DNA from: Escherichia coli | GTDB taxonomy: Bacteria > Pseudomonadota > Gammaproteobacteria > Enterobacterales > Enterobacteriaceae | Strand: one strand, 5' to 3' | DNA: 64,000 bases | Assembly (NCBI RefSeq): GCF_041886205.1 | Contig: NZ_CP169029.1 | In this document: positions 33,448-33,731 of the stretch, piece by piece | Numbering within the stretch: position 1 is the stretch's first letter | Layout: every line of letters starts with the position of its first letter | Position numbers and translations under genes: made by a program | The notes under the pieces: generated by a model | Database searches by the model: none | The model's input: only the letters and a program-made list of their open reading frames with translations | What the model was told of the DNA's origin: nothing

Positions 33448-33731
33448 TGCCGGATGCGACGCTTGCCGCGTCTTATCCGGCCTACGGGATTGCACATGTA
33501 GGGCGGATAAGGCGTTCACGCCGCATCCGCCAGTGGCGCGGTGCAATTGCCGGATGCGATGCTTGCCGCGTCTTATCCGGCCTACGGGATTGCACATGTA
33601 GGGCGGATAAGGCGTTTACGCCGCATCCGCCAGTGGCGCGGTGCAATTGCCGGATGCGACGCTTGCCGCGTCTGATCCGGCCTTCGGGATTGCACATGTA
33701 GGGTGGATAAGACGTTTACGCCGCATCCGCC
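33448..33731. repeat. BIME / REP tandem array (about 2.8 copies of a 100-bp unit, each with two inverted REPs)
   Basis: Unit tgccggatgcgacgcttgccgcgtcttatccggcctacgggattgcacatgtagggcggataaggcgttcacgccgcatccgccagtggcgcggtgcaat repeats with period 100 at about 33448, 33548 and 33648, with point differences. Confidence 0.9.

Follow-up and report, generated by a model that had tools for sequence, protein, structure and literature searches.

What kind of element is the 100-bp tandem repeat that lies between eutG and eutH in the ethanolamine catabolism (eut) operon of Escherichia coli, and does it have an important function there? The question was raised by a stretch of 64,000 nucleotides of contig NZ_CP169029.1 (hereafter the window), for which an initial annotation had described an array of repetitive extragenic palindromes (REPs) and had suggested effects on mRNA as well as binding of DNA gyrase and integration host factor (IHF). 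In the analysis reported here the array is very probably a bacterial interspersed mosaic element (BIME) of the BIME-2 class, built of three Z2/Y pairs of REPs with 12-nt inner linkers and 17-nt, l-like outer linkers, and a resident, selfish-type repeat in the only sizeable untranslated gap among the eut genes. It is an ordinary member of an already known kind of repeat, and E. coli K-12 has a two-unit version at the same position.

The repeat unit and its class

The array was placed by Tandem Repeats Finder at 33448-33732 (period 100, 2.8 copies, 96% matches, no indels, score 528), and a repeat finder resolved three in-register copies with 100-nt spacing and 100, 97 and 84% identity, in agreement with the roughly 2.8 copies described at first. 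In a self-comparison of 33400-33780, which had been proposed as a dot-plot check of the periodicity, lag 100 was the sole lag between 20 and 199 that exceeded 40% identity (0.715). The array is far beyond chance, since only one other tandem repeat in the window scored at least 80, namely a weak 33-bp repeat at 54428-54489 (1.9 copies, 80% matches, score 80). Two of 100 positions distinguish units 1 and 2, and five mismatches to unit 1 were counted in the first 85 positions of unit 3, after which the sequence is unique. The two variant strings quoted earlier as an example of such differences, tcttatccggcctac and tctgatccggccttc, were found at 33471-33485 and 33671-33685. The array is extragenic: it lies entirely downstream of eutG, which ends at 33446, and upstream of the start of eutH at 33763, in a gap whose reported length of 316 bp (33447-33762) was confirmed, both flanking genes being NCBIfam equivalogs.

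On the eut sense strand the 100-nt unit opens with a 37-nt Z2 REP, which a 12-nt linker separates from a 34-nt Y REP in inverted orientation; a 17-nt linker completes the unit (Table 1). The REPs were located with a flexible regular expression, which found 10 of them in the window, six in the array and four elsewhere. The 37-nt palindrome reads GCCGGATGCGACGCTTGCCGCGTCTTATCCGGCCTAC and aligns to the Z2 half of the REP325-derived Rfam model naRNA4 (RF02564); the 34-nt palindrome (GGCGGATGCGGCGTGAACGCCTTATCCGCCCTAC / GTAGGGCGGATAAGGCGTTCACGCCGCATCCGCC) aligns to its Y half, and the 17-nt linker falls on the l segment of the model with a 4-nt insertion. The inverse orientation of the two REPs can be read on the plus strand, where each Z2 ends with CTAC (CTTC in unit 3) and each Y begins with GTAG. 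Two stretches of the plus strand, 33501-33582 (74.1 bits) and 33601-33682 (73.8 bits), exceeded the naRNA4 gathering score of 59.5 and were the only Rfam matches of the region at threshold; the naRNA4 scores on the minus strand (50.7-52.3 bits) stayed under it. The alignment to the Z2 half is shown for units 2 and 3 only, the Z2 of unit 1 being overlapped by a shortened sub-threshold match (33434-33482, 33.9 bits). Unit 3 stops after its second palindrome, at 33731, and the hairpin of this last Y is weakened by two private substitutions.

Table 1. Coordinates of the repeat elements, linkers and flanking genes at the eutG-eutH locus of the window
Feature	Position	Strand	Basis and remarks
Z2-type REP, unit 1	33449..33485	+	Ends CTAC ('iREP' orientation on the mRNA strand); regular expression and hairpin analysis; RNA hairpin -22.8 kcal/mol
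Inner linker, unit 1	33486..33497	+	12 nt, GGGATTGCACAT, between CTAC and GTAG (S-type position); sequence reading, unit dissection
Y-type REP, unit 1	33498..33531	-	Plus strand reads GTAGGGCGGATAAGG...; aligns to the Y half of Rfam naRNA4; RNA hairpin -20.9 kcal/mol
Outer linker, unit 1 to 2	33532..33548	+	17 nt, AGTGGCGCGGTGCAATT, l-like; aligns to the naRNA4 model linker with a 4-nt insertion
Z2-type REP, unit 2	33549..33585	+	Stem position 12 changed from C to T, so that the mRNA strand has a U.G pair there; within naRNA4 match 33501-33582; RNA hairpin -21.0 kcal/mol
Inner linker, unit 2	33586..33597	+	12 nt; sequence reading, unit dissection
Y-type REP, unit 2	33598..33631	-	RNA hairpin -20.9 kcal/mol
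Outer linker, unit 2 to 3	33632..33648	+	17 nt; sequence reading, naRNA4 alignment
Z2-type REP, unit 3	33649..33685	+	CTAC to CTTC, T to G in stem; within naRNA4 match 33601-33682; RNA hairpin -22.3 kcal/mol
Inner linker, unit 3	33686..33697	+	12 nt; sequence reading, unit dissection
Y-type REP, unit 3	33698..33731	-	Weakened (GGGTGG and AAGACG variants); RNA hairpin -11.8 kcal/mol
Unique AT-rich right flank	33732..33762	+	AATAAATAACAACTAACAGGGAGTAAAGGCG, with the eutH Shine-Dalgarno sequence (GGGAG); conserved across the E. coli alleles examined; partial homology with the empty Citrobacter gap of 27 nt
eutG (ethanol dehydrogenase), upstream flank	32259..33446	+	NCBIfam NF011998 equivalog, 890 bits, residues 10-404 of a 404-aa open reading frame
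eutH (ethanolamine permease), downstream flank	33763..34989	+	ATG 33763; NCBIfam NF011665 equivalog, 873 bits

BIME-2 elements are defined by z2 and y REPs, tandem copies, short linkers, the lack of an IHF site and a copy number that varies between strains, while BIME-1 elements are single-copy combinations of z1 and y REPs whose long L linker often contains an IHF site (PMC3333891); in the REP325 RNA a Y motif and a Z2 motif are joined by the linker l (PMC4550694). The eut array shows z2 and y REPs in inverse orientation, three tandem pairs, an extragenic position and a unit number which varies between strains, and it contains neither an L linker nor an IHF core. The claim of two inverted REPs per unit, that is of a BIME, was upheld by the alignment of both halves to RF02564, and it should be kept in mind that the Y/Z2 typing is based on this Rfam model and on the motif lengths. 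IHF binds the long L linker of BIME-1, and BIME-2 is the gyrase-binding class (PMC3333891, PMC2817692). The longest linker of the eut array is 17 nt, and the IHF core WATCAANNNNTTR was found nowhere in 33400-33800 on either strand, so the IHF binding suggested initially was not borne out for this BIME-2. A reading as BIME-1, with RIB-RIP and IHF, was rejected on the Z2-type REPs, the 12- and 17-nt linkers, the lack of an IHF core and the tandem copies. Nothing was found against the BIME-2 identity. The naRNA4 match itself is a mark of repeat-family membership, the model in effect describing any Y-l-Z2 repeat, and not of a demonstrated small RNA.

A second pair of BIME-2 type is present elsewhere in the window, with a Z2 at 8713-8749 (minus strand) and a Y at 8763-8796 (plus strand), and gives the best naRNA4 match of the window (85.7 bits, minus strand); isolated Z2-like REPs were seen at 20059-20094 and 55104-55139, both on the minus strand. 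A literature search found no paper on the eutG-eutH repeat locus.

With its start at ATG 32259 eutG is 1188 nt long, the same length as in K-12, and ends with TAA at 33444-33446; eutJ lies upstream of it and eutA downstream of eutH. The eut operon is unbroken in this strain, with 11 nt between eutA (34986-36389) and eutB (36401-37762); in K-12 MG1655 the 6.8-kb cryptic prophage CPZ-55 lies between these two genes.

Variation of the locus within and beyond Escherichia coli

The 801-bp stretch around the array matched 5,425 of 5,426 complete E. coli genomes. Positions 33200-34000 were 100% identical to E. coli strain 6EVA (NZ_CP138428.1), and 180 of 5,430 records reached at least 99% identity in their best match to this segment. 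The frequencies of the copy-number classes were taken from systematic samples of 60 and 40 out of the 5,430 matching records, not from a full census. In the sample of 60, one unit was found in 18 records (about 30%), two units, as in K-12, in 24 (about 40%), three units, as here, in 5 (about 8%) and more than three in another 5, a 99-bp remnant in 4 (about 7%) and another element in 3; the remaining record was a partial contig match that did not cover the locus. All four sequences retrieved from the class with more than three units had five, which puts the five-unit class at about 8%, and the sample of 40 records agreed with that of 60. The comparison of copy number proposed in the initial annotation thus gave 1, 2, 3 and 5 units in E. 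coli, and Salmonella has its own type of REP at the same site.

Each allele could be assigned to sequenced strains. The gap is 116 bp with one unit in YY76-1, 216 bp with two units in K-12, 316 bp with three units in a BL21(DE3) derivative, and 515 or 516 bp with five units in PAR, MY504, RIVM_C036569 and GN25; in FG31-1 it is reduced to 99 bp, containing a 5'-truncated Z2 and a decayed Y, and in strain 7/2 it measures 169 bp and holds an unrelated G+C-rich element. By the locus span alone, O104:H4 and strain C have the three-unit allele, O157:H7 and O55:H7 the 99-bp remnant, and LF82 the 169-bp element. In the record sample a single locus span was found for all K-12 derivatives, another single one for all O157:H7 records and one for the records with an ST131-like profile, and the unit number looks stable within clones.

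The initial annotation had taken the point differences between the copies as a sign of divergence, and this was not borne out. The motif CCAGCC is present in both units of K-12 and in all three units of the BL21 derivative, and each of the five units of RIVM_C036569 and of GN25 has CTACAGG; PAR and MY504 carry a second, different five-unit allele. In the array of the window private changes are confined to the eutH-proximal unit. Since single-nucleotide polymorphisms specific to a lineage are shared by all units of an array, the copies were amplified or homogenised within lineages and are not slowly diverging. The pattern of shared substitutions indicates either separate expansions of the arrays from one lineage to the next or their homogenisation; they are not old, drifting duplicates. 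The middle unit of the window combines the outer linker of the first unit with the TTTA loop of the last one, and it looks like the hybrid that an unequal exchange between two units of a K-12-like ancestor would give.

Beyond E. coli, the eutG-eutH gap was measured at 50 loci of GTDB species representatives with EutH. The same Z2/Y array was present in four of the four other Escherichia representatives recovered, with 1 unit in E. whittamii, 3 in E1V33, about 4.7 in MOD1-EC7003 and about 5.8 in SCPM-O-B-8794, and the element therefore predates the split of those species. Elsewhere the gap ranged from 32 nt, an empty site, in Yokenella and Pluralibacter and 34-48 nt in Hafnia, Morganella and Buttiauxella through a single REP (67 nt in S. 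enterica subsp. diarizonae, 60 nt in C. sedlakii) to one REP pair of 119-123 nt in C. werkmanii, C. youngae, C. portucalensis, C. koseri, C. gillenii and Pseudocitrobacter, and the Klebsiella species have Klebsiella-type REPs in gaps of 170-216 nt. Judged from these gap sequences, the eutG-eutH site is a recurrent landing place for the REP family proper to each genus.

RNA structure and possible roles in the eut operon

Each of the six palindromes was predicted to form an RNA hairpin (energies in Table 1), and neighbouring palindromes can also pair as longer hairpins of -47.3 (Z2-S-Y) and -52.3 kcal/mol (Y-l-Z2). The minimum free energy of the whole gap, -163 kcal/mol (z = -4.3), was more stable than that of 100 out of 100 shuffles, so the RNA-folding check proposed earlier turned out in favour of strong structure, and the suggested effects on mRNA are plausible as far as the folding goes. 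The mean probability of being unpaired was 0.57 for the Shine-Dalgarno sequence and AUG of eutH and 0.27 for the array; the ribosome-binding site of eutH, which is at least 17 nt past the last hairpin, is predicted to be fairly open.

Conservation of the hairpins was assessed in an alignment of 23 distinct Z2-S-Y units from 10 arrays. The predicted pairs were kept in 97.8% of the cells, against 31-50% in slid controls, and two pairs had changed in a compensatory manner (A-U to G-C in Z2, C-G to U-A in Y); 3 of 500 shuffles reached the observed pairing values. Because the units are 96% identical, this covariation gives weak support and is not decisive. The palindrome itself is kept, which fits its recognition as a hairpin on either strand.

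BIME-2 elements are non-autonomous, selfish-type repeats that a REP-associated tyrosine transposase (TnpA-REP/RAYT) probably spreads and amplifies. BIMEs are bound and cleaved by TnpA-REP, which catalyses strand exchange in vitro, and models have been proposed for their amplification (PMC3333891). Unequal recombination or slippage between the 100-bp units alters their number as well, and unequal recombination would be enough for the changes observed. On this basis the eut array would be maintained mainly as a resident repeat and not as a dedicated eut regulator, and any influence on the operon would be a by-product. Among such by-products, the six G+C-rich hairpins (five of about -21 to -23 kcal/mol, the sixth of -11.8) could impede 3'-5' exonucleases and help the eutS-to-eutG segment of the mRNA to survive; they have no U-tract and therefore do not act as an intrinsic terminator. 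An effect of REPs on mRNA half-life is summarised in PMC12306157, as is the reported finding of Liang, Rudd and Deutscher (2015) that REPs up to 15 nt past a stop codon stall ribosomes and cut the yield of the upstream product. At this locus the first stem base (33449) lies 2-3 nt past the eutG stop codon (TAA 33444-33446), inside the 15-nt limit, and the first hairpin may stall terminating ribosomes and lower the yield of EutG. At the DNA level the Y REPs of the array would be a gyrase cleavage motif, as the y REPs of BIME-2 elements are preferred and transcription-independent gyrase cleavage sites, with a subset of BIME-2 elements enriched (PMC6379681).

Several observations weigh against an important function of the array. 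Six Citrobacter representatives including C. braakii (loci L017, L021, L022, L033, L038 and L048, at about 1974-2000) have a repeat-free gap of 27 nt, ATACACATATGACAGGGAGTGAAGGCT. In the remnant allele (FG31-1, locus L004:248-346, with the 584-bp locus span seen in O157:H7/O55:H7) the 5' half of Z2 is deleted and Y is decayed, and this remnant lineage is without the stop-proximal hairpin. In 304 of 5,426 genomes the BIME is replaced in the eutG-eutH gap by a G+C-rich palindromic element of 169 bp (GTCCCCTCGCCCCTTTGGGGAGAGGGTTAGGGTGAGGGG...; strain 7/2, locus L005:248-416). One-sided stem changes that keep a G.U pair were counted in 9 cells for the plus (mRNA) strand and in 7 for the minus strand, and with no bias to the mRNA strand nothing points to selection on the eut sense RNA specifically. 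Since empty, remnant and replaced alleles exist, none of the by-product effects can be essential. The 169-bp element is itself a dispersed repeat, at a median of 7 places per genome; the 304 genomes carry it in full length. No Rfam family matched it, and presumably it resembles the 'boxC' class. Neither eutG nor eutH is named in the examined supplements of the gyrase Topo-Seq paper (PMC6379681) or in those of the RepRanger paper.

A different explanation would make the array a selected intra-operon regulator that sets the ratio of eutS-eutG to eutH-eutR through mRNA stability, Rho attenuation and/or stop-codon stalling, with copy number as a tuning knob. Several observations speak for such a role: the gap is by far the largest untranslated one of the eut operon (the other gaps in K-12 are at most 106 nt), it is strongly structured, its first hairpin falls inside the 15-nt limit given in PMC12306157, REPs are reported to aid Rho-dependent termination (PMC2817692), and the gap was occupied by some repeat in all sampled E. 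coli records as well as in four other species of Escherichia. This persistence can, however, be explained by REPs inserting or recombining preferentially at existing REPs (PMC3333891). The copy number runs from 1 to 5 with no preferred state, healthy lineages and species live with remnant, replaced or empty alleles, the proximity to the stop codon is lost in O157:H7 and varies among genera, and the stem substitutions are without mRNA-strand bias. Rho, moreover, would be expected to load poorly on the array, since it is G-rich (C/G ratio 0.85) and structured. We consider a selected regulator unlikely, and the resident BIME-2 remains the preferred reading.

It could also be supposed that the principal role of the array concerns the DNA and the nucleoid, either as a strong, transcription-independent gyrase site and/or through naRNA4-like Y-l-Z2 RNAs which bridge cruciforms with HU and condense the chromosome. 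BIME-2 elements are enriched for gyrase cleavage, mostly at y REPs (PMC6379681), REP325 RNA together with HU condenses DNA in a way for which the hairpins matter and not the sequence (PMC4550694), and two stretches of the eut array exceed the curated Rfam threshold for naRNA4. Gyrase hot spots are, however, a subset of the BIME-2 elements, and the eut array is not named in the text or the examined supplements of PMC6379681. An Rfam match shows the repeat family and not an expressed small RNA, no promoter was detected in or beside the array, the eut operon is silent without ethanolamine and B12, and the size of the array is not conserved. A main role of this kind is in our judgement quite improbable.

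A more speculative idea takes the number of units (none in some Citrobacter; 1, 2, 3 or 5 in E. coli; remnant or replaced in O157:H7 and LF82-like strains) as a heritable rheostat of ethanolamine catabolism, and we regard it as very improbable. If it held, additional hairpins, along with one directly at the eutG stop, would reduce EutG and change the ratio between the shell and enzyme genes upstream and eutH, eutABC and eutR downstream; since eutR is the last gene of the operon, the strength of the positive feedback and the threshold of induction in the gut would then differ between lineages.

That the array divides the eut operon into two transcription units, as an intrinsic terminator or an internal promoter, may be suggested by the G+C-rich hairpins halfway along an operon of 17 genes. 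None of the hairpins in the array is followed by a T-run, as an intrinsic terminator should be, no sigma-70-like promoter was found in 32800-34400, and the sole terminator-like match lies inside eutH at chance level, so that this division of the operon is extremely unlikely. The match in question is a weak, imperfect palindrome, CATCATGTACATCATGATG, at 33780-33807 in the first eutH codons, which is terminator-like on both strands (2 found against 1.4 expected).

The sequence TAAATG at 33444-33449 joins an ATG to the eutG stop; this ATG opens an 84-aa open reading frame and is also part of the base of the first REP. There is practically no chance that the region encodes small proteins, be it this frame (33447-33701) or minus-strand ones: the stop/start overlap can support translational re-initiation and frames of 31-148 aa overlap the array, but the unit is read in a new frame each time because 100 is not a multiple of 3, the length of the frame from ATG 33447 goes with the copy number (29 aa with one unit, 66 aa with the two of K-12, 84 aa with three or five), five array-overlapping frames had no Pfam match, and no coding sequence is annotated in the gap in the 10 RefSeq genomes inspected. 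The coding reading was accordingly rejected, and the verdict of the initial annotation that these REP-derived frames are artefacts was confirmed.

Significance and relation to known repeat systems

The discovery value of the locus is small: descriptions going back to the 1990s cover BIME-2 arrays, their Y/Z2 composition, the variation of copy number between strains and the connections with gyrase, mRNA decay and translation. For annotation the practical consequences are that open reading frames over the array should be ignored, that naRNA4 matches should be read as 'BIME-2 unit' and not as a small RNA gene, and that no IHF binding should be assumed. The survey furthermore provides a clean example of an intra-operon REP 'landing pad', which is empty in some Citrobacter and taken by genus-specific REPs elsewhere, and of independent expansions with array-wide homogenisation. 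The locus thereby offers a convenient natural allelic series for the effect of intercistronic REP arrays on the expression of an operon.

Compared with the BIME-2 family in the nomenclature of Gilson, Bachellier and Hofnung (PMC3333891), the eut array has the same alternating Z2 and Y REPs, short linkers, head-to-tail pairs, extragenic location, variable unit number and similar units within a locus, and nothing of substance differs. In its details, the l-like outer linker exceeds that of the REP325-based model by 4 nt, and the Y REPs carry a compensated GGCGG...CCGCC stem variant in place of GCCGG...CCGGC. BIME-1 elements share with it the inverted REP pair that includes a Y REP, but they contain Z1 and a long L linker in which an IHF site lies, and they occur singly, in contrast to the Z2, the 12/17-nt linkers and the tandem units of the eut array.

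REP325/naRNA4 (RF02564; PMC4550694) consists of the same Y-linker-Z2 unit, and two eut stretches match it with about 74 bits on the eut sense strand. REP325 comprises six units between yjdM and yjdN and has been found experimentally to yield HU-bound RNAs, whereas the eut array has three units in an inducible operon and is known from its sequence.

Intercistronic REP stabilisers, with malE-malF as the example, likewise place REP hairpins without a U-tract between two cistrons, where a block of 3'-5' exonucleases favouring the upstream mRNA would be expected. The stabilising effect has been measured in mal and other operons, while the eut array, likened to them by sequence, is longer, with six hairpins, and polymorphic in size. 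With the stop-proximal stalling REPs of Liang et al. (2015), as summarised in PMC12306157, it shares a eutG-proximal stem at 2-3 nt, within the limit of 15 nt; in the remnant allele of O157:H7, and likewise in some species of Escherichia, the stem is no longer close to the stop codon.

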